Positions 706 through 63,867 of a DNA stretch of 64,000 nt are shown piece by piece (position 1 is the stretch's first letter; every line of letters begins with the position of its first letter). The translations under genes and the position numbers were made by a program. Origin of the DNA: a bacterium (lineage in GTDB: Bacteria; Bacillota_I; Bacilli_A; RF39; UBA660); assembly GCA_044432745.1 (NCBI GenBank), contig JAWXUH010000001.1, forward strand, positions 114,760 through 178,759, given 5' to 3'. Under the pieces are notes generated by a model. The model searched no databases. It had not been told where the DNA came from and saw nothing but the letters and a program-made list of their open reading frames with translations.

Positions 706-2458
706 TTTCTAGTTCCTCCTTTGATAATTGTGAAAGAGCTATTTCTTTATATACTTCACATTTCTTTAACAAATCTTTGTGTTTTCCTATACCTACAATT
801 TCACCGTTTTCAAGTACTATTATTTGATCTGCATTTTTAATTGTACCTATTCTTTGAGCTACTATTATTCTAGTACTATCACTACAATTTTCGTTTAAAG
901 CATTTCTTAAATTTCTATCTGTTTTATAATCTAATGCAGAAAATGAATCATCAAATATAAAAATATCTGGTTTTCTATTAATAGCTCTTGCAATACTAAT
1001 TCTTTGTTTTTGTCCACCAGATAAATTTCCACCAGCTTGAGCTATATGCCCATTATACTTATCTTCTAAACCTTCAACAAAATCTTTTGCTTGCGCTATT
1101 TCTATTGATTTTTTTAAATCATTTTTTTCACTTTCTTTTCCATTACATCCGTATGATACATTTGATTCAATTGTACCTGAGAATAATGTTGCTTTCTGTG
1201 ATATATATCCTATTTTATTTCTTAAATCTGATAATTTGTATTCAGTTATATTAATACCTTCTACTAAAACTTCTCCTTTATTAGGATCAAAGAACCTAGG
1301 TATCAAATTAACTATTGTACTTTTACCACAACCAGTTGCACCTATAAAGGCAATTACTTCACCTTTTTTAGCTTTAAATGATATATCTTTTAGTATATAA
1401 TCTTTTCCATCTGGATATTTAAATGAAACATTTTTAAATTCTATTTCACCTTTTTTATCTTTATTACCTTCTGTTCCTTTTCCATCTACGATTGAAACTT
1501 CAGTACATAATACTTCATTTATTCTTTTAGCTGATACTGCTGATCTAGGTAACATAATAAATACCATTACTAGTATCATAAATGATATTATAATTTGCAT
1601 TCCATATGACGTAAATACGATCATATCTGAAAATAATACTTCAACTGTTGTTAAATTTGCATTACTTATTAAATATGCACCAATGAAATATATTGATAAT
1701 ACTAAGAAACTATTTACTGCTTGTATACTAGGCATAATTACAGATAACGTTCTATTTGCAAACAAATTTGTAGACGTTAAATTATTATTACATTCTAAGA
1801 ATTTGTTATATTGATATTCTTCTGCATTATATGCTCTAATAACACTTAATCCTGTTAAATGCTCTCTTGTTACTCTATTTATATCATCAGTAAGTGCTTG
1901 TATTTTTTTAAATTTTGGTATTACTAAGAATAAACATACTCCAACTATTGTTAATAATACTAATACTGATACTCCAACGGCACCAGACCATGTTAAATTT
2001 TTATTTAGTATTTTACTTACAGCCCAAATTGACATTGTTGGTGCCTTTATCATAGCTTGTAATCCCATTATAATTAATATTTGAACTTGTGTAACGTCGT
2101 TAGTTGTTCTTGTTATTAAACTTGACGTTGAAAACTTATTAATCTCTGCATTAGAAAATGATTGTACTTTTTCAAATATTTCTTTTCTTAATCTTGCAGA
2201 AAAATTAGATGCAATCTTAGCTGCTATTACTGATACAAATACCGCTAGAATTAAACTAGCCACTGCACAACCTATCATCTTACTTCCTGCTAACATTACT
2301 TCATTTAATGCATCCGAACCACTACTAATTAGCATAGTTATTTCAGACATATAATCAGGTAATAATAATTCTAAATGTACTTGAAACATTATTAATACAA
2401 CAACTATTAAAGATAATAACCATTCTGTTTTAGTTAGATATTTTAATATTTTAATCAT
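698..2458 (-). CDS. ABC transporter ATP-binding/permease protein (exporter type, TMD-NBD fusion)
   Basis: 586 aa. N-terminal six TM helices. Walker A GATGCGKST, ABC signature LSGGQKQR and Walker B IFIFDD are all present. Confidence 0.85.
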   Translation of the reverse strand: MIKILKYLTKTEWLLSLIVVVLIMFQVHLELLLPDYMSEITMLISSGSDALNEVMLAGSKMIGCAVASLILAVFVSVIAAKIASNFSARLRKEIFEKVQSFSNAEINKFSTSSLITRTTNDVTQVQILIIMGLQAMIKAPTMSIWAVSKILNKNLTWSGAVGVSVLVLLTIVGVCLFLVIPKFKKIQALTDDINRVTREHLTGLSVIRAYNAEEYQYNKFLECNNNLTSTNLFANRTLSVIMPSIQAVNSFLVLSIYFIGAYLISNANLTTVEVLFSDMIVFTSYGMQIIISFMILVMVFIMLPRSAVSAKRINEVLCTEVSIVDGKGTEGNKDKKGEIEFKNVSFKYPDGKDYILKDISFKAKKGEVIAFIGATGCGKSTIVNLIPRFFDPNKGEVLVEGINITEYKLSDLRNKIGYISQKATLFSGTIESNVSYGCNGKESEKNDLKKSIEIAQAKDFVEGLEDKYNGHIAQAGGNLSGGQKQRISIARAINRKPDIFIFDDSFSALDYKTDRNLRNALNENCSDSTRIIVAQRIGTIKNADQIIVLENGEIVGIGKHKDLLKKCEVYKEIALSQLSKEELENE

Positions 2459-3926
2459 TTAGACTCTCCTTCTTTTTTTCTTCTTTTTCTTTAACTTTTA
2501 ATGACTCTTTAATTTTTCTTTTTGCATAACTAGTATGTGCTTTTTCTATCCATTCTTTTTTATCAATGTTGGAATCATCTGTTACAATTTTTATTCTATC
2601 CTTATTTTTAAGAACATAGTCAATATCTACTGGATGATCATTTACAACTGCAGATACCATCTTAGTTCCAATTTCTGTATGCATCTTGAACGCAAAATCA
2701 ATTGGTGTAGATCCTTTTGGAAGTTCTACTATTTCTCCAGATGGTGAATAAACATATATCTTATCATTAAGAACTTCATCTTTTACCAAATTTACAAATT
2801 GGTAATTATCTCCAAATGCATTGTCTAAATCCTCTAATACACTAAAGAATTGATAATTTTCTATTAAGTCTTTTTGCATTAAGTTAGTTGCTTTGTTTTT
2901 ATTTCTTTCCCAGTATGATACTAAACCATAACAATCTGTCATATCCATTTCAAATGTACGTATTTGTACTTGCATTAAGTATCCGTCCATCCCAAATATT
3001 GTTGTATGTAAAGATTTATACATATTTGTTTTTGGATTAGAGATATAATCTTTGAATTTATGATTAACTGGATAGTATACACTATGAATTGTTCCTAATG
3101 CCTTATAACAATCCATTATAGTTGGCACTGTTACTACAAGTGATCTTATATTATGTATCTCTTCAAATTTGTAACCTTTATTTAACCTCTTATTTATACC
3201 CGTTAAACTAAGTTCTCTTATAACTAATTTAAATTTTATTTTTTCTGCTTTTAATTTATTTCCTATAGTATTTGTTATAAGTTCAATATTTTCGGCATTC
3301 TTTTCAAAAGATTCATTTTTTAAATCTTTTATTTTTTTATATTTTTCTTTATCTAAATACTTGAAAGAAAGATCTTCTAGTTCTTCTTTTATTAAATATG
3401 CTCCTATATGATATGCTAGTGGTACAAATATTTCCATTGTCTCTACTGCATTTTTCACTTGTTTCTCCGGCTTTTTAAACTCTAAAGTTTTCATATTATG
3501 AAGTCTATCAGCAAGTTTAATAACTATTATCCTTATATCATTTTTAATACTAGTTATAATCTTTCTAGTATTTTCCATTATAATATCTTCTTCATTTACA
3601 AAGTGAATATTACTTATTTTTGTTACACCTAATACCAAATTACATACTTCTTCTCCAAACTCGGCTGTTAGTTCTTCTTTCGTAACTGGAGTATCCTCTA
3701 GAACATCATGCAGCAACCCTGCACACACTGTCTTCTCATCAGCCTTCATAGTTGCTAGTATGTACGCTACATTTAGCGGATGAATTATATATTCTTCTCC
3801 ACTTTGCCTTTTTTGGCCTTCATGAAATTTTTCTGCATAAAAATACGCTTTCTTTATTATATCCTTATTTCTTTTATTGTATTTATTAATTTCTTTTAAT
3901 AAATCTTCTAACTTTAACTCATTCAT
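2451..3926 (-). CDS. rel: RelA/SpoT-family (p)ppGpp hydrolase/synthetase homolog, short form (HD + synthetase-like + TGS, no ACT/zinc-finger C-terminal region)
   Basis: 491 aa. HD motif HPLNVAYIL...LLHDVLEDT. Synthetase-like region DYISNPKTNMYKSLHTTIFG...QVQIRTFEMD. TGS-like IYVYSPSGEIVELPKGSTPIDFAF. The protein ends ~60 aa after the TGS domain. Confidence 0.8.
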   Translation of the reverse strand: MNELKLEDLLKEINKYNKRNKDIIKKAYFYAEKFHEGQKRQSGEEYIIHPLNVAYILATMKADEKTVCAGLLHDVLEDTPVTKEELTAEFGEEVCNLVLGVTKISNIHFVNEEDIIMENTRKIITSIKNDIRIIVIKLADRLHNMKTLEFKKPEKQVKNAVETMEIFVPLAYHIGAYLIKEELEDLSFKYLDKEKYKKIKDLKNESFEKNAENIELITNTIGNKLKAEKIKFKLVIRELSLTGINKRLNKGYKFEEIHNIRSLVVTVPTIMDCYKALGTIHSVYYPVNHKFKDYISNPKTNMYKSLHTTIFGMDGYLMQVQIRTFEMDMTDCYGLVSYWERNKNKATNLMQKDLIENYQFFSVLEDLDNAFGDNYQFVNLVKDEVLNDKIYVYSPSGEIVELPKGSTPIDFAFKMHTEIGTKMVSAVVNDHPVDIDYVLKNKDRIKIVTDDSNIDKKEWIEKAHTSYAKRKIKESLKVKEKEEKKKESLND

Positions 3927-3946
3927 TAAATTTCCACCCTTTTCAC

Positions 3947-4666
3947 TTAATCTAATGTAAATTCATAATAATCTTCTGGAAATACCATAAAATCTATATT
4001 ATTATCTTTTGCATACTCTCTTGTTAAATCCCTTATGTGAGTAGCTACCATTTGTTTTTTATATTTTTCATACAATATTTTATTTGTATCTATTCCCATA
4101 TGCGTTTTTGATTCATTTATATGAGAACAATCCGTTATAATTACTTTTGAATTTTCTACTATTTTTTCAACCCCTTGACAAAGGGTTGCATCACCTGTAA
4201 CCCCTAATTTATTGTTAATTACATATCCATTACATGGTTCTTCTTTCCCGTGTAATACTTTATATGCTTTTATTTTATAATCATGAACTATAACTTCTTC
4301 TTCGTCTGCTAATTCAGTTATTTTTATATTATACTTTTCTAAATAATCTCCTTGTTTTATAAAATTAAATGCATTTTCTATTTCTATTATTTTTGAAGAT
4401 ATACCAACTGGACCTATTATATTTATTTTTTTATTCAATCTTAGGTATATATTTATATATACCAAGAAAAACAATATATCTGCTGTATGGTCACCATGCA
4501 TATGAGTTATAATAATCGTTTCTATTTTATTAATGTCATTTCCATTTCTTAAAAACTGCTTTAATGCTCCATTTGGTGTATCTATGATTATTTTCTCATC
4601 TACTAATACAGATGCACTATTATATATAGTATATACTGCACCAGTACCTAACATTTTTACCTTCAT
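3947..4666 (-). CDS. MBL-fold metallo-hydrolase
   Basis: 239 aa with metallo-beta-lactamase motif ITHMHGDHTADI (HxHxDH). Confidence 0.7.
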   Translation of the reverse strand: MKVKMLGTGAVYTIYNSASVLVDEKIIIDTPNGALKQFLRNGNDINKIETIIITHMHGDHTADILFFLVYINIYLRLNKKINIIGPVGISSKIIEIENAFNFIKQGDYLEKYNIKITELADEEEVIVHDYKIKAYKVLHGKEEPCNGYVINNKLGVTGDATLCQGVEKIVENSKVIITDCSHINESKTHMGIDTNKILYEKYKKQMVATHIRDLTREYAKDNNIDFMVFPEDYYEFTLD

Positions 4667-11178: not shown

Positions 11179-11946
11179 TTACTTTTTTTTAGTATATAAT
11201 GTATTTTCTAATTCTTGATTAATTATATTTAATTTTTCTTCGAATTCATCTAACTTTCCTTCTACATATAATCTAATACAAATATTCATTACAACTGAAT
11301 ATAATTGCATCTTATTTCTTTCTAATATTTTTGCTATTTTTGCAATAACTTCTTTTGTAATAAGTACAGAATTATATTCAAAATCTATATGATACTTTAC
11401 TTTTGTTTCATATGCAGTTTCATTTTTATTAAAACAACTTTCGTATGTGGCATTAGTAGCATACTTTATCTCACCTAAATAAGATACTAATATTTCTGTA
11501 TTTTCTATTTCCATTTTCAATAACAATTCTTCAATTTTTTTTCTAAACTCTGTTTTTCTTGTTAAATTAATACCATGAACTTTTAATTTATCTATGTCTC
11601 CATTATAAATTGTTATGTATTTTATTGGTAAATATTTATATATTAATACAATTAATTCTTCTTCACTCATTTTTTCTTTATTTTCTTCTAATATTCTTAT
11701 TAATAAATCAAATTGTTGTTTTGTATCATCGTATCTTTCTAATACCTTTTCTTCACTCAATATTCTTATTTGCTCAGTTATCTGCGGTTCTTCAGTTTTT
11801 AAAAATCTTAACATTCCTTCAAAACTTTTCTTTGTTATATTATGTTCTTCACAAAAATCTTCAATATATAGGTAGTCTCCTTTAATATATTCTAATCCCA
11901 TTTTTTTTCTATTCAATCTTTTGATATTTTTACTATTTCCTTGCAT
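11179..11946 (-). CDS. hypothetical protein, tandem paralog 1 (all-helical; possible N-terminal HTH-like segment)
   Basis: 255 aa. Shares clear motifs with the adjacent 252-aa ORF: YLYxExFC...NI, RYDDxK, LxVLI, GINLxRKTExxxKIEELxxKMExEN, KEVI and YxEGxL. Confidence 0.5.
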   Translation of the reverse strand: MQGNSKNIKRLNRKKMGLEYIKGDYLYIEDFCEEHNITKKSFEGMLRFLKTEEPQITEQIRILSEEKVLERYDDTKQQFDLLIRILEENKEKMSEEELIVLIYKYLPIKYITIYNGDIDKLKVHGINLTRKTEFRKKIEELLLKMEIENTEILVSYLGEIKYATNATYESCFNKNETAYETKVKYHIDFEYNSVLITKEVIAKIAKILERNKMQLYSVVMNICIRLYVEGKLDEFEEKLNIINQELENTLYTKKK

Positions 11947-11966: not shown

Positions 11967-12725
11967 CTATCTTTCTTTACCTTGTTCATTACTTTCTATT
12001 ATAAAGAAGGTTTCTTTGTATTTTTCTAAATTTCCCTCCGCATATATATTAATCAATAATCTTACAATATATAGATTCATTGGAATTTTTGCTTCATTAC
12101 AAAAATCTAAAACATTTTTTATTACTTCCTTATTTATTAAAATATTATTTAATTCGTAATCGTAAATTAAAGAACTTATTAATAAGTGTTTATTATTTGG
12201 TTTTTCCATATTCATTCCAACTATTAACGAAGAAGTAAAGTTATTTTCGTATAAAAAATTCATTAATATAGAATAATTTTCCAATTCCATTTTTTTTACT
12301 AACTCTTCTATCTTTTCTTTTATTTCTGTTTTTCTTTCTAAATTTATTCCATATTCCTTTAATAATATAATATCTTCACAATACTTAAATACGTAATTCA
12401 TTGGCATTTTTTTTATTATCAATACCAATAACTCATTTGTAGTTAATATATCTTCTTGTTCTTTTATTATATTTATTATTTGATAAAATTTATTTTTGGC
12501 ATCATCGTATCTTGATAATATTTCTTTTCTATTTTTTTCTTCTAATGATTTTATAATGTCTGAATTTCTCTTCTTTAATGCAGATATTATTACTGACATT
12601 TTTTGTTTTTCTATATTTTTATTACAACAAAATTCTTCTAAATATAAATATTGACTATTTATATATTCTTGTATCATTTCTTCTTGTTCTTCCCTTGTTA
12701 ACTTCTGATTCATTTTTGTACTCAC
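11967..12725 (-). CDS. hypothetical protein, tandem paralog 2
   Basis: 252 aa. Paralog of the 11179..11946 ORF, separated from it by 20 nt; roughly 35-45% identity by eye. Confidence 0.5.
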   Translation of the reverse strand: MSTKMNQKLTREEQEEMIQEYINSQYLYLEEFCCNKNIEKQKMSVIISALKKRNSDIIKSLEEKNRKEILSRYDDAKNKFYQIINIIKEQEDILTTNELLVLIIKKMPMNYVFKYCEDIILLKEYGINLERKTEIKEKIEELVKKMELENYSILMNFLYENNFTSSLIVGMNMEKPNNKHLLISSLIYDYELNNILINKEVIKNVLDFCNEAKIPMNLYIVRLLINIYAEGNLEKYKETFFIIESNEQGKER

Positions 12726-12837: not shown

Positions 12838-12848
12838 CATGATATAAT
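12838..12848 (+). promoter_or_regulatory. extended -10 promoter (TGaTATAAT) upstream of the Hpt-REC gene
   Basis: TGATATAAT lies 24 nt upstream of the ATG, followed by the RBS AAAGGTAGGAA. The -35 element is weak. Confidence 0.3.
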
Positions 12849-12871
12849 TGTTCTAAAGGTAGGAATGAATA

Positions 12872-13618
12872 ATGAAAAATATTAATTTTTTAAAAGATCA
12901 CGGAGTTGATGTTGAAAAAAGTATCGAATTATTTGGTGATATCGAACTTTATAATAGTACTATAGAAGATTTCTTAGACGGGATAGATGTTAAAATAGAA
13001 AGACTTAAAACTTTTAAAGGTAATAGTGAAATAGCTAACTATGCTATATTTGCTCACTCTGTTAAAAGTGATGCTAGATATTTAGGTTTTGATTCAGTAG
13101 CTGCTATTGCACTAGAACATGAACTTGCAGGTAAAGATGGTAATGAAAAATTCATTAATGAAAATTACGATAATTTTTGTGAAGCAATTAATCAAATGAT
13201 TAAAGTTTCATCTGATTATTTAAATGATAATGATTGCGAAGATAATATTATTAAGAAAAACATAGTTGTAGTTGATGATGCACCTTTAATAACTAATATT
13301 GTAAAAAATTCATTAGAATCGAAATTTAATTTAGTTATTTTTAATAACTCTAAAGAAGCAGCTGATTATATACTTAATAATAAAGATAACATTGATGTGC
13401 TATTATTAGATTTAAATATGCCAGAACTTGATGGTTTTGATATTTTAAAACTTATGCATACTAATAATCTTTTCCAAAATATTAAAGTATCAATTATCAC
13501 TGGTGATGAAAGTAAAGAAACTATAGATAAGGCATTCATGTATCCTATTATAGATATGTTAAATAAACCGTTTAGTGTAGAAAATCTTAAAACTGTTATT
13601 GATAAAACATTACAATAA
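12872..13618 (+). CDS. Hpt-domain / CheY-like receiver fusion protein (phosphorelay protein without an output domain)
   Basis: 248 aa. The N-terminus carries an Hpt-like four-helix motif FAHSVKSDARYLGFDSVAAIALEHELAGK. The C-terminal REC domain has VVVDD, LLLDLNMP, SIITG and NKPF. Confidence 0.7.
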   Translation: MKNINFLKDHGVDVEKSIELFGDIELYNSTIEDFLDGIDVKIERLKTFKGNSEIANYAIFAHSVKSDARYLGFDSVAAIALEHELAGKDGNEKFINENYDNFCEAINQMIKVSSDYLNDNDCEDNIIKKNIVVVDDAPLITNIVKNSLESKFNLVIFNNSKEAADYILNNKDNIDVLLLDLNMPELDGFDILKLMHTNNLFQNIKVSIITGDESKETIDKAFMYPIIDMLNKPFSVENLKTVIDKTLQ

Positions 13619-13654
13619 AAAAAAGTAATTCTTTAAAAATATTACTTTTTTTTA
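13619..13654. terminator. bidirectional rho-independent terminator between convergent genes
   Basis: aaaaaagtaat ... attactttttt forms a perfect 11-bp stem, flanked by A/T runs on both sides. It sits between the plus-gene stop (13618) and the minus-gene stop (13652). Confidence 0.5.
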
Positions 13655-14824
13655 TTGTATAGATATTCTCATAAAATCATTTTCTTTTAATTCGAAATCT
13701 ACTTTTACTTTTATTATCATTTTAGGATGATTTGCTATTTCAATTAAATTATCATCTTTATCAAATATTTCATTTACGGTATATTCATTTATTTCAAATT
13801 TTGGATTAAAGAATTGAACTTTATCTCCTTTTTTAAAATAATTTCTTTGTTCTAATGTAACCATACCTGAATCTTTATCATATTCTTTTACTATTGCAAG
13901 AAAATCCTTATTAGTTTCTTCTGTTCTACCAAAGAAATACTGATCTGTTTCATCTGGTAAATTATTAAAAAATTGAGCTTTAGATTCTCTATTTGCTACC
14001 CTATTTAATATCTTTAAGAAATATTCTTGATCTTCTTTAGTTAATTTATTTTCACTTACTAAATCAAAGATTTTTCTATATACTCCTACTACTGTAGCTA
14101 AATAATATACAGATCTCATTCTTCCTTCTATTTTATAAGATACAACTCCTAAAGAAAACATTTCTTGAATATTTTCAATCATGTTTAAATCTTTACTCAT
14201 CATTGAAAATTCAGGATTTTCTTTATTTTTAAAACACCATCTACATACCTGTGCACATCCGCCTCTATTTGCGTCTCTAAGCGTTGTTTTATTTGATAAT
14301 AAACATTTACCCGAAAAACTTGTGCACATTGCTCCATGAACAAATACTTCTGCTTCTACTCCAGTATTTTCTATTACCCTTTTTATTTCTTCTTTGTCAC
14401 ATTCTCTTCCTAGCACGACTCTCTTAACTCCAAGAGATTGCCAGAATGCCACGTTGTATTCATTTATTGAACTAGCTTGAGTAGATAATACTATAAATAA
14501 ATCTAGTTCATTTTCTTTTATCATATCTACTACTGCTATATCACTTACTATAACACCATCTATTTTTATTTCTTCTAAATACTTTAAATATTCTAATAAA
14601 CCTTCAAAATCTTCATCATGAAATACTATATTTACTGTTATATATACTTTCTTATTAAGTGCGTGTGCAAAATCTACTGCTTCTTTTAATTCTTCTAAAG
14701 AAAAATTTGTAGCATTTGCTCTTAGAGAAAAATTTCTTCCACCTATATATACTGCATCTGCTCCATATAGCAATGCTATTTTTAATTTTTCTAGATCTTT
14801 TGCAGGTGCTAACAATTCTCTCAT
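13652..14824 (-). CDS. peptidase U32 family protein (YrrO/TrhP-like, tRNA U34 5-hydroxylation-associated)
   Basis: 390 aa. U32 N-terminal motif LEKLKIALLYGADAVYIGG. Contains the Cys-rich segment CAQVCRWC. Synteny with the B. subtilis yrrM-yrrN-yrrO cluster. Confidence 0.8.
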   Translation of the reverse strand: MRELLAPAKDLEKLKIALLYGADAVYIGGRNFSLRANATNFSLEELKEAVDFAHALNKKVYITVNIVFHDEDFEGLLEYLKYLEEIKIDGVIVSDIAVVDMIKENELDLFIVLSTQASSINEYNVAFWQSLGVKRVVLGRECDKEEIKRVIENTGVEAEVFVHGAMCTSFSGKCLLSNKTTLRDANRGGCAQVCRWCFKNKENPEFSMMSKDLNMIENIQEMFSLGVVSYKIEGRMRSVYYLATVVGVYRKIFDLVSENKLTKEDQEYFLKILNRVANRESKAQFFNNLPDETDQYFFGRTEETNKDFLAIVKEYDKDSGMVTLEQRNYFKKGDKVQFFNPKFEINEYTVNEIFDKDDNLIEIANHPKMIIKVKVDFELKENDFMRISIQ

Positions 14825-21955: not shown

Positions 21956-22054
21956 TTTAAATCCCTTCCTTTGATTTGTACTATGTATTATACCATATTA
22001 TTTAAAAAAATGTATATAAATATCTTTTTTTTCATATAATTTATTGGTGATAAT

Positions 22055-23653
<1,599 letters not shown>

Positions 23654-32340: not shown

Positions 32341-35300
32341 TTATTCTTCTGTACTAATTACTTCTTCTTTTTCAATAAAGTTTTTTTCTAATGCTGAATC
32401 TACTTCATCATCTAAAAATTCTTTTTCTAAATCAAAAGATATATCTGAATATTCTTTAGCACCTGTACCAGCTGGTATTAATTTACCAATGATAACATTT
32501 TCCTTAAGACCTTTTAAGTGATCTACTTTACTACGTATTGCAGCATCTGTAAGAACTCTTGTTGTTTCTTGGAAACTTGCTGCTGATAAGAATGAATCAG
32601 TTTCAAGAGAAGATTTTGTAATACCAAGCATTATAGGATTTCCTGTTGCTGGTATTTTACCTTCCATTATTACTGGTTTATTACCTTCACTAAATTCACG
32701 TAACGAAATAGCTAAACCTTCTACAAATGGAGAATCTCCTCCGTTTGTAATTCTGATTTTATTAATCATTCTCTTAACTATTATTTCAATGTGTTTATCA
32801 TTAATATCAACACCTTGAAGTTTATATACTTTTTGTACTTCTTTTAGTATATATTCTTGTGCACGTAGTGGATTAGTATATGCAAGTAATTCTTTTGGTG
32901 AAATAACACCATTTGTTAGAACATCTCCTGCTTCTACTTCATCTCCAACTTCTACTTTCACTGATGAATTATAGTTTGTTGTAATTTCTGTAATTCCTGA
33001 TGCATTTTCGATTGCAATATCATGTTTACCATTATTTTCAGTTATTTTAACTATTTGACCTGTTACTTCAGCAAGTGTTGCTTTAATTTTAGGTATTCTA
33101 GCTTCAAATAATTCTTCAACTCTTGGTAACCCTTGAGTGATATCGTCATCCCCTGCAACTCCACCTGTATGGAATGTTCTCATTGTAAGCTGTGTTCCTG
33201 GTTCCCCAATTGATTGTGCAGCCATTATACCTACAGCTTCACCTGTTTCAACTAAATTATTAGTTGCTAGGTTACGACCATAACATTTTTGACATACTCC
33301 ACCATCACATTTACAAGTAAGTACACTTCTTATTTCTACACGTTTAATATCTGCTGCTACTATTTTAGACACAATACTTTCAGTGATCATTTCACCAGCA
33401 TTTAATATCAATTCTTTAGTTTCTGGATGTATAATTTTCTTAGATGAAAATCTTCCTAATATACGTTCACCTAATGTTTCAATAATCGAATTATCTTTTT
33501 CATTTAGTAAATCGTATGTCATGATACCTTGAGAAGTACCACAATCATGTTCACGTATAAGTATATCTTGTGCAACGTCAACTAATCTTCTTGTTAAGTA
33601 ACCTGAATCGGCTGTACGAAGTGCTGTATCTGCTGAACCTTTTCTTGAACCATGAGTTGACAAGAAGAATTCTGATACGCTTAATCCTTCAATAAATGAT
33701 GATGTAATTGGAATTTCTTCCGTTTCACCACTTGGTTTAGCCATTAATCCACGCATACCTGCAAGCTGTGTAAAGTTTGAGATCTTACCACGGGCACCAG
33801 AGTTCATCATCATGAATAACGGATTATCAAAATCATTTTCAGACAATTCACGAAGTTCTTTTTTAACTTCATCTGTTGCTCCAGACCAAACATCTATAAC
33901 TGATTGATATCTTTCACCTTCAGTTATCATACCTCTTTGGTATTGTTTATTAATTTTATCTACTTTTTCTTTTGCTTTTAAAATTATTTCATCTTTATTA
34001 TTACTTGTAACAATATCAGAAATTGATACAGTTATACCTGCTTTTGTTGAATATTTAAATCCAAGATTTTTTAAATTATCAAGCATTATTGATGTTTCAG
34101 TTGTATGATATCTCTTAAATACTTGAGCAATTATTAGTGATAAATCTTTTTGAATAAATGGTTTATTCACTGGAAGTTTATCAACAAATTCAATAATATT
34201 TTCTCCCATTTCAATAAAATATTGACTTGGTGTAATACCTTCGATATTTTCAATACTAGCTTCATTTATATATGGAAGCGTATCTGGAAGAACTTCATTG
34301 AATTTAATTTTCCCAACTGTTGTTACGAAATATTTATCCATTACATCTGGTGAAAACAATTTATGTTTAAACGAATTTACTGGAATAACTATTCTAGTAT
34401 GAAGATTTAAATCTCCTCTTTCGTATGCCATGCATGCTTCATTTACATCTTTATATACGTGACCTTCTTTTTTATGACCTCTTTTTTCCATTGTTAAATA
34501 ACAATTTCCAAGTACCATATCTTGTGAAGGTGTAACGATTGGTTTACCATCTTTTGGATTCAAGATATTATTTGCACCTATCATTAAAATTCTAGCTTCT
34601 GCTTTTGCTTCTTCTGATAATGGAACATGTACTGCCATTTGATCTCCATCGAAATCGGCATTAAATGCTGTACAAACAAGTGGATGTAATCTAATAGCTT
34701 TTCCACCAATTAACTTAGGTTCAAACGCTTGAATACCAAGTCTATGTAGTGTCGGTGCACGGTTAAGCATTACTGGGTATTCAGTTATTACATCTTCTAC
34801 AATATCCCATACTTTTTCATCACGTGCGTCAATTAATTTTTTAGCACCTTTAATGTTATGAGCTAAACCACGTTCAACTATACCATTAATAATATGCGGT
34901 TTAAATAGTTCAATTGCCATTTCTTTTGGAAGACCACATTGATACATTTTAAGATTTGGTCCAACAACAATTACTGAACGTCCAGAATAATCTACACGTT
35001 TACCTAGTAAGTTTTGTCTAAATCTACCTTGTTTACCTTTAAGCATTGATGATAAACTCTTAAGTGGTCTAGCATTTGCACTTGTTACACTTCTTCCACG
35101 TCTACCGTTATCAAATAACGAATCAACTGCTTCTTGAAGCATTCTTTTTTCATTTTGTACAATAATCGCTGGTGCTCCTAGTTCAAGTAATTTCTTTAAA
35201 CGAGTATTTCTGTTAATTATTCTTCTATACAAATCATTTAAATCACTTGTTGCAAATCTACCACCATCAAGTTGAATCATAGGTCTAAGTTCTGGTGGAA

Positions 35301-36000
35301 TAACTGGAACTACATCTAATACCATCCACTCAGGTTTATTATCACTATCTTCAAAAGCACATAAACAATCTAATCTTTTTACTAATCTTACTCGTCTTTG
35401 GCTTGTTGCTGTTTCAAGTTCTCTTCTAACTTCAACCAATTCTTCTTGGATATTTACATCTTTAAGTAGTTGTTGGATAGCTTCCGCACCTTTTCCTACT
35501 TTAAAATCATTTCCGTATGTTTCATAATATGTACGATATTCTTTATCAGTTAATATTTGTTTTTTAAGTAATGGTGATTTACCAGGATCAACTACTACAT
35601 AACTAACAAAATATAAAACTTCTTCAAGATTTCTTGGTGACATATCAAGTACTAATCCCATTTTAGATGGAACTCCTTTAAAGAACCAAATGTGAGAACA
35701 AGGAGCAGCAAGTTCAATGTGCCCCATTCTTTCTCTTCTTACATTTGATCTAGTAACTTCTACACCACATCTATCACATATTATACTTTTATATCTTAAT
35801 CTTTTGTATTTACCACATGAACATTCATAATCTTTAGAAGGTCCAAATATTTTTTCACAAAATAACCCATCTTTTTCAGGTTTTAGCGTACGATAATTTA
35901 TTGTTTCAGGTTTTTTAACCTCACCGTATGACCAACTTCTTATTTTATCAGGACTAGCTATACCAATTTTTATTCCTTTAAATTTTCTAACATCAATCAT
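32341..36000 (-). CDS. rpoC: DNA-directed RNA polymerase subunit beta'
   Basis: 1219 aa. Zn-finger CxxC...CxxC near the N-terminus. Catalytic NADFDGDQM. Trigger loop and C-terminal regions conserved. Confidence 0.95.
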
Positions 36001-60425: not shown

Positions 60426-60983
60426 TTAATATCCCTTTGTTTTATATATATTATATAACTCTTCGAATCTATTGAAATGCACGACTTCTCTTTGTCTTAA
60501 AAATAATAATACATTTATTAGATCCTCATCTTCTGTAAGCTCAATTAAATTTTCATATGTTACTCTAGCCTTAGATTCAGCTGCCATATCTTCAACTAAA
60601 TCAGCTATAGGGTCACCTGTAACTTGAAAATATGCTGCTGTAAATGGTGAACCTGATGCATCAACCGGAAAAATACCTTTTCTATGATCTGTAAAATATC
60701 CAGAAAGTCCTGCTTCTTTTATTTCATCTTTTGTTGCTCCAGATAATAACTGATGAATCATTGTAGATATCATTTCAACATGTCCTAACTCTTCTGTTGC
60801 TATATCATTTAAAAGCGCTCTTCCTCTATCACATGGCATTGTATATTTTTGAGAAAAATATCTAAGCGCTGCTCCTAATTCTCCATTTGCTCCACCTAAC
60901 TGAGATAATAAGCATTTAGCCATATTAACATCTTTTTTCTTTATATCTACTGGAAATGATAAAATCTTTTGATATTTATACAT
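60426..60983 (-). CDS. cotJC: spore coat protein CotJC (manganese catalase family, ferritin-like)
   Basis: Start at the ATG (MYKYQKIL) with RBS GGAGGA; the ORF track extends to 61010. Mn-catalase/CotJC motifs ...ATEELGHVEMISTMI.... Confidence 0.8.
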   Translation of the reverse strand: MYKYQKILSFPVDIKKKDVNMAKCLLSQLGGANGELGAALRYFSQKYTMPCDRGRALLNDIATEELGHVEMISTMIHQLLSGATKDEIKEAGLSGYFTDHRKGIFPVDASGSPFTAAYFQVTGDPIADLVEDMAAESKARVTYENLIELTEDEDLINVLLFLRQREVVHFNRFEELYNIYKTKGY

Positions 60984-61398
60984 ATTTAGAATCCTCCTTT
61001 TCCCAAGCATTATTGCCTAACCATAAATTCTTATCAAACACATTTTCACATACCTCAAGTGGTCCATAATTTTTTACGTAATCTTCTTCACATTTTATTA
61101 ATTTATGTATATACTCTTTTAATATATTAAAAACTTTTTCATCATCAGGATGGATATCTAACCATAAATTCAAATCGTTTATAGCAAAATTCAACTCCAT
61201 TATTCTATAAAGTTTGGCATTTTTTTCACAAGTAGTTCTAGGCATCTTAGGTCTATACTCTTTATATTTTGAATATTCTTTTTCAAACATATTACCTTTC
61301 ACAAATCCAGTAGTTGAATCATACAACTCATTTGTACTTTCTTTTTCTTCACTTAATCCCATAAATGATAGAAAATTAAAATCATTTTCAAATAACAT
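60976..61398 (-). CDS. cotJB: spore coat protein CotJB with N-terminal CotJA-like segment (apparent CotJA-CotJB fusion)
   Basis: 140 aa. The C-terminal half matches CotJB (ELNFAINDLNLWLDIHPDDEKV...YGPLEV). The N-terminal part has a CotJA-like G(T/N)(L/M)F...Y..Y segment (GNMFEKEYSKYKEY). 8-nt overlap with cotJC. Confidence 0.6.
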   Translation of the reverse strand: MLFENDFNFLSFMGLSEEKESTNELYDSTTGFVKGNMFEKEYSKYKEYRPKMPRTTCEKNAKLYRIMELNFAINDLNLWLDIHPDDEKVFNILKEYIHKLIKCEEDYVKNYGPLEVCENVFDKNLWLGNNAWEKEDSKYV

Positions 61399-61533: not shown

Positions 61534-63867
61534 ATGGCAAAAAAGAAAAAATCAAAAAATAGTAAAGGAGCCGTTACATACAACATTGAATTAACTGGAC
61601 TTATACTTATATTAATAGGTATTTTAGGATTTGGATTTGGTGTTGCAGGTACTTTATTTAAAAAATTCTCTTTATTTTTAGGTGGAAGTTATTGGTTTTT
61701 ATTATTAATAGCACTACTTTATATAGGTAGTTATATGTTAGTAAAAAGAAGTACTCCAGAATTTGCTTCCTCTAGATTAATAGGATTTTATATAGTGTTA
61801 GTAGTCGTACTTTCTAGTGCACACTATGAAATACTTGCTCAGGAAGTAGATGTTAATAACATATTTATGACAACTTATGATAACTATGTTAAAAGAATGA
61901 ATACAATAAATTCTAATAATGCACTAGGTTTTAGCGGTACTGGTGACATTGGTGGTGGTTTGATTGGATGTATATTTATATCAATATTTGGATTTATTGG
62001 TGGTGTTATCGGTTCTAAAATAATACTATTTATATTATTTATATTTGGTACTGTTTTATTATTTGATTTAAATATTTCTGAAATATTAGAAAACTTCTTT
62101 GTTAGACTTAAAAATACATTTGCATTCTTAAAACCAAGCGGAGAAAGTACTCGTGGTAAAGAAAAAGTTAAGGTTATTAAAAAAGAAGAAATTATTGAAG
62201 AACCTATCGAAGATGAACAAACTAATTTTGAAGAAGATTACAACGATTATCCTGCTCCTATTCCTGTTGAAGAAGTAGAAGAAAAGATTATTGTATCTTC
62301 TATTGACGATATTAAAAATCGCAAGCCAGAAGTATCTCAAATAAATGAAGCTTATGATGAAGAATCTTTTTCTTCAGAAGAAGAATATAATAATAGTGAA
62401 ATTGAACAAAAAGAAGAAGAAATTATTGATGAAACTGGATACAAACTTCCTACTGCGTCTATTTTAAATCCAGTACAAATTAAAAAAACTACATCTGCTA
62501 ACAATGCAGAAATTAATAACAAGAAAAAATTACTTAAAGGAGTATGCTCTGATTTTGGTTTAAATATAACAATTAAATCAACGAATGTTGCTCCCGCTGT
62601 TACTCAATTTGAAGTAACTGTTCCTCAAGGTACTAAAGTAAATAAAATTGTAAGTATTAATAAAGAAATAGCACTTGCTATGGCAGCAAAAGATGTTCGT
62701 ATACAAGCTCCTATTCCAGGAAAAAGTACTATAGGTATTGAAATACCAAATGATAGTATTACTGCTGTTGGATTTAGAGAAGTACTCGAAGATGAAATAG
62801 GAAAACATGATGATAAATTATTTGTAGCTTTAGGTAGAGATTTAATGGGTAAATGCGTTGTAGAAGATTTAACTAAAACTCCCCATTTACTTGTTGCAGG
62901 TTCTACTGGTTCTGGTAAATCAGTATGTATTAATACAATGATTATCTCAATACTTATGCGTTACAAACCAAGTGAAGTTAGACTTGTTATGGTGGATCCA
63001 AAAAAAGTTGAACTTACAAATTATAATGGTATTCCTCACCTACTATGTCCTGTAGTAAGTGATCCTAAAAAAGCAAGTTTAACACTTCAAAAAATAGTTT
63101 CTGAAATGGAAAAAAGATATGATACATTTAGTGATAATGTAGTTAAAAATATTAGTGGTTACAATGAAATGATTGATAAACACAATAAGAAAAATCCTGA
63201 TAATATTCAACCTAGAATGCCTTATATTCTAGTAATAATAGATGAACTTGCAGACTTGATGCTTGTTGCTTCTAAGGAAGTTGAAGATTCAATTGCTAGA
63301 ATTACACAAATGGCACGTGCTGCAGGTATACATTTAATTGTTGCAACACAAAGACCTTCTACTGATGTAATTACAGGTTTAATTAAAAATAATATACCTT
63401 CTAGAATAGCTTTCTCAGTGTCTTCTGCAATAGATTCTAGAACTATACTTGATTCATCTGGTGCAGAAAAACTACTTGGTAAAGGAGATATGCTTTATCT
63501 TCCAATGGGAGAAAGTACTTCAAGACGTGTTCAAGGATGTTTTATATCAGATGATGAAATTAAAAATGTTATTGATCACTGTAAAAATCAAATGAGTGCT
63601 AAATATGATGAAACACTTGTTTCAGCTGAACCTGTTATTAGTGCAAGTGGTACTGGTAATAGCGAAGGTGGAGATGATCCAATGTATGATGAAATTGTTG
63701 ATTTTGCTATGGAAACTGGTAAAATTAGTGCTTCTTTAATACAAAGAAGATTTAGATTTGGTTATAATAGAGCTGCAAGAATGATGGATTTATTAGAATC
63801 TAGAGGCATTGTTGGAGAACAGAACGGTTCAAAACCTCGTGAAGTAATTAAAAGAAATGAAGAATAA
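61534..63867 (+). CDS. ftsK: DNA translocase FtsK/SpoIIIE
   Basis: 777 aa. N-terminal TM helices and an acidic linker. Motor domain with Walker A GSTGSGKS and Walker B VIIDELAD. C-terminal gamma winged-helix ASLIQRRFRFGYNRAARMMD. Confidence 0.9.
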   Translation: MAKKKKSKNSKGAVTYNIELTGLILILIGILGFGFGVAGTLFKKFSLFLGGSYWFLLLIALLYIGSYMLVKRSTPEFASSRLIGFYIVLVVVLSSAHYEILAQEVDVNNIFMTTYDNYVKRMNTINSNNALGFSGTGDIGGGLIGCIFISIFGFIGGVIGSKIILFILFIFGTVLLFDLNISEILENFFVRLKNTFAFLKPSGESTRGKEKVKVIKKEEIIEEPIEDEQTNFEEDYNDYPAPIPVEEVEEKIIVSSIDDIKNRKPEVSQINEAYDEESFSSEEEYNNSEIEQKEEEIIDETGYKLPTASILNPVQIKKTTSANNAEINNKKKLLKGVCSDFGLNITIKSTNVAPAVTQFEVTVPQGTKVNKIVSINKEIALAMAAKDVRIQAPIPGKSTIGIEIPNDSITAVGFREVLEDEIGKHDDKLFVALGRDLMGKCVVEDLTKTPHLLVAGSTGSGKSVCINTMIISILMRYKPSEVRLVMVDPKKVELTNYNGIPHLLCPVVSDPKKASLTLQKIVSEMEKRYDTFSDNVVKNISGYNEMIDKHNKKNPDNIQPRMPYILVIIDELADLMLVASKEVEDSIARITQMARAAGIHLIVATQRPSTDVITGLIKNNIPSRIAFSVSSAIDSRTILDSSGAEKLLGKGDMLYLPMGESTSRRVQGCFISDDEIKNVIDHCKNQMSAKYDETLVSAEPVISASGTGNSEGGDDPMYDEIVDFAMETGKISASLIQRRFRFGYNRAARMMDLLESRGIVGEQNGSKPREVIKRNEE

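Follow-up and report, generated by a model that had tools for sequence, protein, structure and literature searches.

The window, i.e. the whole 64-kb stretch of DNA analysed here (contig JAWXUH010000001.1), contains at 12872-13618, on the plus strand, an open reading frame (ORF) which starts with ATG and encodes 248 aa, as established from the ORF list and by reading the sequence. Its product, referred to below as Hpt-REC, is composed of an N-terminal histidine phosphotransfer (Hpt) domain fused to a C-terminal receiver (REC) domain, REC_T. Hpt-REC probably supplies the two final modules of a phosphorelay that runs in four steps (His-Asp-His-Asp) and is split over two genes, and is most likely an ordinary, uncharacterised part of such a relay rather than a kinase-less oddity. 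Both domains and their phosphotransfer residues are conserved, a hybrid kinase family is operon-linked to the gene in relatives, and the same Hpt is found fused to that kinase. An earlier interpretation made from the letters alone, here called the sequence-only reading, had suggested a possible phosphorelay component and named candidate phosphotransfer residues; on these points the results bear it out. The gene and the parts of its product are the following:

12872..13618, plus strand: Hpt-REC coding sequence, 248 aa, stop codon included, named 'response regulator' by the NCBI pipeline.
12872..13225, plus strand: Hpt domain, residues 1-118, from Pfam matches in homologs, a CheA P1 profile match, the AlphaFold2 (AF2) model and Foldseek.
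13055..13057, plus strand: CAC codon of His62, predicted phospho-acceptor within the motif HSxKSDARYxGF, invariant in the alignments and aligned with CheA P1.
13226..13258, plus strand: acidic inter-domain linker, residues 119-129, with AF2 predicted local distance difference test (pLDDT) values <50 at residues 121-126 and gaps in the alignment.
13259..13615, plus strand: REC_T receiver, residues 130-248, (beta-alpha)5 fold, from PF00072, PDB profile matches, Foldseek and invariant columns.
13409..13411, plus strand: GAT codon of Asp180, predicted phospho-acceptor within LLLDLNMP, invariant in 36/36 sequences and read from the sequence.

The receiver was recognised by Pfam family PF00072 over residues 131-243 (E=4e-20; score 72.5 bits, cut-off 30.2), and the same model matches 36/36 aligned family members, while NCBIfam gave partial receiver matches only, none of them at its own cut-off. 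A REC profile run against the PDB retrieved CheY, RR468 and Spo0F with E-values of 1e-13 to 1e-17. The secondary structure of the AF2 receiver consists of five beta-alpha units, Foldseek template-modelling (TM) scores to receivers are 0.8-0.9, and the catalytic set Asp135, Asp136, Asp180, Thr210 and Lys232-Pro233 is conserved.

The N-terminal half required more than a single model. Scanned with the window protein alone, PF01627 matches residues 32-100 with E=0.0021 and 18.7 bits, under its cut-off of 24.6 bits; of the aligned family members, scanned singly, 35/36 match this model at E<=0.01 (best E=3.1e-8). A precomputed PF01627 match is also present on most of the best 120 homologs, out of at least 316 cluster representatives. 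Comparison of a profile of the N-terminal 122 residues with the PDB identified the P1 domain of Thermotoga maritima CheA (2ld6, E=2.3e-5; 1tqg, E=6.7e-4). The counterparts of His62, Lys65 and Glu84 in that domain are His45, Lys48 and Glu67, which in CheA are the phospho-His and its hydrogen-bond partners; both Lys65 (position +3) and Glu84 (+22 from His62) are invariant.

Structure prediction gave the four-helix bundle anticipated by the sequence-only reading. The AF2 model of residues 1-122 (pLDDT 94.6; predicted TM score, pTM, 0.86) shows two short helices followed by helices 24-50, 54-71, 74-88 and 92-117, His62 being placed in the second of the four. When the N-domain was compared to the PDB by Foldseek, the best match was the Hpt of a hybrid kinase from Shewanella (3myf; TM 0.79/0.84, root mean square deviation 1.7 A), and nearly all of the top ~35 matches were Hpt domains, including HptB (0.76/0.80), ArcB, Ypd1, plant AHPs and BarA. 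The full-length model retrieved receivers only, and was uninformative on the N-domain. As family HMM matches, the CheA P1 profile and the predicted fold agree, the N-terminal half is an Hpt domain despite its sub-threshold Pfam score, and the Hpt-REC architecture first read from the sequence is confirmed.

Conservation was evaluated on an alignment of 36 homologs, 42-65% identical to the window protein. All the motifs quoted in the sequence-only reading are present, namely AHSVKSDARYLGF with His62, VVVDD (Asp135/136), LLLDLNMP (Asp180), SIITG and NKPF (Lys232). His62, the proposed phospho-acceptor, is invariant in 36/36 sequences, together with Ser63, Lys65, Asp67, Gly72, His83 and Glu84 in the Hpt part, and with Asp135, Asp136, Asp180, Ser207, Gly211, Lys232 and Pro233 in the receiver part. 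Position 210 is always Thr or Ser: within SIITG, Thr210 corresponds to the conserved receiver hydroxyl, and Ser207 is an invariant residue specific to the Hpt-REC family. The linker is among the shortest in the aligned family, homologs having up to ~50 extra residues and the 402-438 aa variants (P0254, P0256) a linker ~180 residues longer. The alignment revealed no sign of truncation or decay.

Homologs were searched in 5.8 billion proteins, and at least 316 cluster representatives were recovered; the lengths of the 120 best lie between 244 and 292 aa, so that the gene, at 248 aa, is not truncated. The absence of an output domain, claimed in the sequence-only reading, was confirmed. Relatives are present in at least 564 species-representative genomes, uncultured gut metagenome-assembled genomes (MAGs) labelled Bacilli, Tenericutes, Mollicutes, Mycoplasma or Erysipelotrichaceae, in addition to Coprobacillus sp. 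CAG:605; the statement that Hpt domains are rare in this phylum consequently fails for this lineage. A literature search on Hpt-REC found no paper on this architecture or family.

Some of the carrier MAGs are evidently mislabelled Muribaculaceae: the title 'uncultured Muribaculaceae bacterium' is attached to many GTDB representatives in which this gene of low-G+C Bacilli occurs (L005-L013, L021, L029, L032, L050, L074), and NCBI taxonomy places 'Candidatus Scybalousia' under Bacteroidales, an apparent mislabel of the public record.

The genomic neighbourhood was surveyed at the 80 best loci, one per species, out of the at least 564, by clustering the ORFs contained in flanks of up to 10 kb. 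This survey revealed that in 21/80 loci a gene for a hybrid kinase of ~605 aa is located directly upstream of Hpt-REC, on the same strand, with a gap of 9-158 bp (median 43). In two further loci (L019, L066) the kinase lies within 6 kb, with genes inserted between it and Hpt-REC; these are intermediate states. The Pfam layout of the kinase comprises a multi-pass hydrophobic N-terminus, HisKA (237-301), HATPase_c (349-461) and Response_reg (490-601), and no Hpt; its H-box His, its N, G1 and G2 boxes and the Asp, Thr and Lys of its receiver are invariant in the kinase alignment. A hybrid kinase lacking an Hpt and an adjoining Hpt-REC gene together provide the full set of parts for a His-Asp-His-Asp relay. 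At one locus (L081), two kinase genes flank a single Hpt-REC gene.

A search with the kinase family gave at least 8000 matches, the best 120 of which were dissected. Proteins of 617-624 aa have the layout transmembrane-HisKA-HATPase-REC, those of 741-779 aa contain two receivers, and in those of 861-991 aa an Hpt at the C-terminus comes after two or three receivers. This Hpt belongs to the same family as that of the window, and is found in 42/120 of the best kinase homologs (family-profile E of 1e-36 to 1e-48). The receivers of ten dissected kinases are all of one class, REC1: with the REC1 profile they reach 149-218 bits, with that of REC_T 21-50 bits; since every sampled kinase receiver is of the REC1 type, REC_T is a separate, downstream receiver class. 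The kinase family shows receiver duplication by steps: its members have one, two or three REC1 domains in tandem, and a terminal Hpt may be present or absent (P0121-P0240; e.g. P0197, P0123, P0191, P0121).

The arrangement was further examined with a profile run exhaustively over 1.84 billion representatives, which gave 853 sequences at E<=1e-30. Inspection of the top 150 identified 62 Hpt-REC_T proteins, 21 proteins ending in REC1-Hpt (some soluble, others preceded by a kinase), a small number of Hpt proteins standing alone, and, at a greater distance, HK-REC-Hpt-REC fusions, where HK stands for histidine kinase. Because fusions of both kinds, kinase-Hpt and HK-REC-Hpt-REC, exist, the Hpt can be placed between REC1 and REC_T; judging from these layouts, it always occupies this position, and the gene boundary alone varies. 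Operon adjacency and the fusions of the same Hpt both point to a functional coupling of the Hpt to the hybrid kinase family.

Multi-step phosphorelays have been generally described (PMC9981736). In the relay proposed here, phosphate would originate from a hybrid kinase made up of a multi-pass N-terminus, HisKA, HATPase_c and at least one C-terminal REC1, without an Hpt, and, in the window's genome, presumably encoded elsewhere. It would then pass from the Asp of REC1 to His62 of the Hpt domain, and from His62 to Asp180 of the fused REC_T. As REC_T has no output domain, it must act by phosphorylation-dependent protein contacts or set the lifetime of the signal; phosphorylated REC_T would either make contacts similar to those of single-domain regulators or determine signal duration. 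The direction of the flow is predicted directly by the series of gene boundaries found (HK-REC / Hpt-REC; HK-REC-REC-Hpt; REC-Hpt; Hpt alone), a clear case of natural domain shuffling in one pathway. The system would represent an uncharacterised two-gene phosphorelay, consisting of a membrane hybrid kinase and Hpt-REC, widespread in the reduced-genome gut Bacilli, in at least 564 species. Signalling in these uncultured organisms is almost wholly undescribed; the principles of two-component signalling are left unchanged by the finding.

Several observations weigh against the two-gene relay. Neither a kinase nor another receiver or another Hpt was detected in the 64-kb window or in ~2.4 kb of extra flank, of which ~1.7 kb lie beyond its left end and ~0.7 kb beyond its right end. 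A kinase is found within 10 kb, or less at contig ends, in 0/9 of the closest species (L005-L013, 51-59% identity), and none of the best 120 kinase homologs, of at least 8000, is located on the 302,856-bp contig that carries the window protein. Beside the gene, neither a conserved candidate target nor a regulator that binds DNA was found in any context. In the full-length AF2 model (pLDDT 91.4) the Hpt and the receiver are not confidently docked (pTM 0.51). Finally, the switch position of REC_T (Lys232 minus 3) is occupied by Met229, nearly invariant in the family, and not by an aromatic residue. Allosteric terminal receivers typically have an aromatic residue (Tyr or Phe) at the switch position of beta5, with Y-T coupling (PMC9981736); Met229 would be unusual for a receiver of this kind and compatible with a passive role. 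It bears on the activation mechanism only, and membership in the receiver family stands.

Sink receivers drain phosphate in some chemotaxis and hybrid-kinase systems. By analogy, the real output could be a separate response regulator fed by the Hpt, REC_T serving to drain the phosphorylated Hpt and to shape signal duration, an alternative which we regard as possible, if unlikely. The lack of an output domain and the Met in place of the aromatic switch agree with it, as do the kinases of L087 and L088, which end in an Hpt with no REC_T nearby and indicate that this Hpt family can serve distant acceptors; passive intermediary and sink receivers acting without allosteric change are moreover known (PMC9981736). 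However, no second response regulator is found beside any of the 80+ loci, and REC_T is conserved at least as well as the Hpt, including alpha4-beta5 positions A221, Y224, I226, D228, M229, L230 and K232, a pattern which fits a partner-binding surface, though these positions are partly structural too.

What the kinase of the proposed relay senses may be suggested by its own neighbours. A gene for an AMP-binding acyl ligase precedes the kinase in 7/21 adjacent cases, as well as at L086 and L088:

L014, L025, L044, L050, L055, L075, L081, L086, L088: gene for an AMP-binding (acyl-CoA/ACP ligase-like) protein of ~600-630 aa preceding the kinase, with gaps of a few to ~25 bp.

In a single case (L087) the kinase is preceded by a gene for a PlsC-type acyltransferase. 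The position of a multi-pass sensor beside lipid-activating enzymes suggests membrane or fatty-acid sensing, and hints that the input of the relay might be linked to fatty-acid or membrane-lipid metabolism. Two bolder interpretations may be considered together, and we hold it improbable that either is correct. One is a family-wide relay sensing membrane lipids, based on the repeated co-encoding of the multi-pass kinase with the acyl ligase or the PlsC-type acyltransferase. The other is a kinase-free His/Asp phosphate buffer, in the lineage of the window and perhaps in a second kinase-less clade described below; such a buffer would take its phosphate from acetyl phosphate or a different metabolic donor, and would report the energy or lipid-metabolic state.

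The absence of a kinase from the window, noted in the sequence-only reading, was borne out by a motif scan and by an unfiltered hmmsearch of six-frame ORFs with HisKA, HATPase and REC profiles, whose sole match was the receiver of Hpt-REC itself. As a family property, 'no kinase in sight' does not hold, given the 23 loci reported above in which a kinase is directly upstream or within 6 kb. In a neighbor-joining tree of 81 Hpt-REC proteins (that of the window plus those of the 80 loci), kinase adjacency is scattered over several sub-clades and is absent from two groups: the clade with the gene order rplU-ysxB-rpmA-obg-unk230-HptREC-unk112-yebC, and the clade containing the window and L005-L013. 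On the basis of the tree, both the window clade and the 'obg-unk230' clade appear to have lost the adjacency. The original surroundings of the gene can be traced through two genes of the window:

22364-23638, minus strand: obg, convergent with unk112, which it overlaps by ~27 bp.
22040-22390, plus strand: homolog of unk112, a conserved gene for a 112-aa protein of unknown function (E=2.3e-14).

The Hpt-REC gene of more than 20 related species is located between obg and unk112, often with a gene for a 230-aa unknown protein containing a GxGxG-like motif, so that the obg/unk112 junction would mark the ancestral Hpt-REC site. In the window, Hpt-REC is 9 kb away from obg/unk112 and inverted, a displacement which indicates a lineage-specific relocation. 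The apparent kinase-less oddity is explained by this relocation, and the absence of a kinase from the window is a local accident.

Alternatively, Hpt-REC could be independent of any kinase, fed by acetyl phosphate on Asp180 and perhaps passing phosphate backwards to His62, or it could be a decaying remnant. The lack of a kinase in the 64 kb and at the loci of the nine closest species would agree with this, as would the departure of the gene from its ancestral site and its inversion relative to almost all other genes. Yet the phosphotransfer residues are intact over the kinase-less clades at 50-65% identity, and Hpt-REC does not vary in sequence between the contigs found (P0001, the same protein, is encoded on 10 contigs, of which the 4 shown stem from 4 separate samples); both facts argue for the persistence of a phosphodonor. 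Non-adjacent kinases are, besides, common in two-component systems, and we judge a kinase-independent or relic gene quite improbable.

The regions flanking the gene contain the following elements:

12840..12848, plus strand: extended -10-like element TGATATAAT, candidate only, 24 nt 5' of the start codon, from sequence reading.
12856-12864, plus strand: purine-rich Shine-Dalgarno-like sequence AAGGTAGGA, candidate, between the -10-like element and the start codon.
13611..13659, no strand assigned: perfect 19-bp A/U-rich hairpin, likely a bidirectional terminator, from RNA folding.

The hairpin covers the stop codons of Hpt-REC and of the U32 peptidase gene convergent with it, and its folding energy of -17.4 kcal/mol (z=-6.97) was equalled by 0/200 shuffled sequences. 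Generic scans of this region, 24% in G+C, found 10 promoter sites against 10.1 expected, and 0 terminators. The former result is uninformative because the DNA is AT-rich; in the latter, reliance on G+C causes A/U-rich hairpins to be missed, and direct folding is needed. The 100% identity across contigs, the promoter-like element of its own and the terminator hairpin are candidate local signs of function.

The presence of spore-coat genes in the window, reported in the sequence-only reading, was verified:

60426-61398 (approximate limits), minus strand: cotJC (Mn-catalase family, 194-aa ORF) and cotJB (140-aa ORF), next to an FtsK/SpoIIIE gene at 61534-63867.

These genes fit a reduced member of the Bacilli that forms spores or once did, and Hpt-REC could accordingly be imagined as a substitute for Spo0F/Spo0B, feeding Spo0A in such a Bacillus-like organism. 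The logic would be the same His-Asp-His-Asp one, and the REC profile does match Spo0F with E~4e-13, though no better than CheY or RR468. The N-domain is predicted to form a monomeric Hpt bundle and not a dimeric domain of the Spo0B type. In relatives the operon partner is a hybrid kinase, often found by AMP-binding ligase or acyltransferase genes and not by sporulation genes. Members of the Hpt-REC family are also found in MAGs that bear the labels Tenericutes, Mollicutes and Mycoplasma. In some related orders spo0A is missing (PMC10868615). None of the findings speaks for a tie between Hpt-REC and sporulation, and we consider the substitution very improbable.

Hpt-REC is located within a housekeeping block composed of gatCAB, hisS, greA, two unknown paralogs, Hpt-REC itself, two U32 peptidases, an O-methyltransferase, mltG, ruvX and ireB. 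The two paralogs precede it in divergent orientation:

11967-12725, minus strand: first paralog, 252 aa, divergent from Hpt-REC.
11179-11946, minus strand: second paralog, 255 aa, in tandem with the first.

As stated in the sequence-only reading, these genes are tandem paralogs transcribed divergently from Hpt-REC; their products are 34% identical (E=7e-37), and the divergent intergenic region next to Hpt-REC is 146 bp long. The three-gene signalling module proposed there, in which the paralogs would be sensors or outputs, is scarcely credible and largely refuted at the family level: the short distance, the conservation of the arrangement on four strain-level contigs and a vague resemblance of the paralog N-termini to small helix-turn-helix-like proteins (CD3324 family, E=0.11, far sub-threshold) speak for it, but no homolog of either paralog occurs within 10 kb of Hpt-REC in the 80 other species (co-occurrence at 0/80 loci), one of the two, paralog B (NCBI locus tag R3Y13_00625), matches only itself among 5.8 billion proteins, neither paralog has a Pfam or NCBIfam match, and the other, paralog A, is split in the ORF calls of strain L002 (6851-7598) into a 107-aa and a 157-aa frame, a sign of a frameshift or a pseudogene, with Hpt-REC unchanged. 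The two paralogs are lineage-specific ORFans, with no evidence of membership in the signalling system.

The window has a G+C content of ~26%, and nearly all of its genes lie on the minus strand (~48/53 ORFs of at least 120 aa), Hpt-REC being among the few on the plus strand. The GC skew ranges from ~-0.2 to -0.35 until ~60 kb and then flips to +0.05; there may be a replication-related switch near the right end of the window. A look-up of a 1219-aa ORF at 32344-36000 gave no record of its protein. At 2451-4666, on the minus strand, a gene of the RelA/SpoT family (491 aa) directly follows one encoding a metallo-beta-lactamase (MBL) fold. The product of the latter matches the Pfam family Anti-Pycsar_Apyc1, and is probably a housekeeping MBL hydrolase, not an anti-defence protein.

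Compared with known systems, the predicted two-gene relay is closest in logic to those in which phosphate goes from a hybrid kinase through a free-standing Hpt protein to a response regulator, such as RcsC-RcsD-RcsB, LuxQ-LuxU-LuxO, ShkA-ShpA-TacA and Sln1-Ypd1-Ssk1. It shares with them the His-Asp-His-Asp order, a hybrid kinase without an Hpt of its own, an Hpt four-helix bundle whose His is followed by Lys at +3, and a catalytically complete terminal receiver. It differs from them in that the Hpt is fused N-terminally to the terminal receiver, the receiver is output-less, and the kinase gene is not adjacent in the window.

The unorthodox tripartite kinases ArcB, BarA, BvgS and TorS have the layout HK-REC-Hpt, which is shared by relatives of the partner kinase carrying the same Hpt family at their C-terminus, and the modelled fold of the window Hpt matches the Hpt domains of ArcB and BarA. 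Unlike in the ArcB type, the gene boundary in the window precedes the Hpt, which is therefore joined to its acceptor and separated from its donor.

CheA P1 provides the best sequence match among solved structures (2ld6, E=2.3e-5). Unlike CheA, the window protein has no P2-P5, the remainder being a receiver; identification as a CheA was rejected, since only the P1-like Hpt is present, and P3, the P4 HATPase and the CheW-like P5 are not. Since a HisKA-type hybrid kinase is the operon partner, the expected donor is an aspartyl-phosphate, rather than ATP at a CheA catalytic domain. Assignment to the Spo0F/Spo0B relay was likewise rejected, on account of the monomeric Hpt bundle, the unspecific Spo0F match and the lack of any NCBIfam equivalog at cut-off.

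Like CheY, DivK, CpdR and Spo0F, REC_T is a complete receiver without an effector domain. Unlike single-domain regulators of the CheY type, it is tethered to its own phosphodonor, and it has Met at the switch position, which in CheY is occupied by Tyr.

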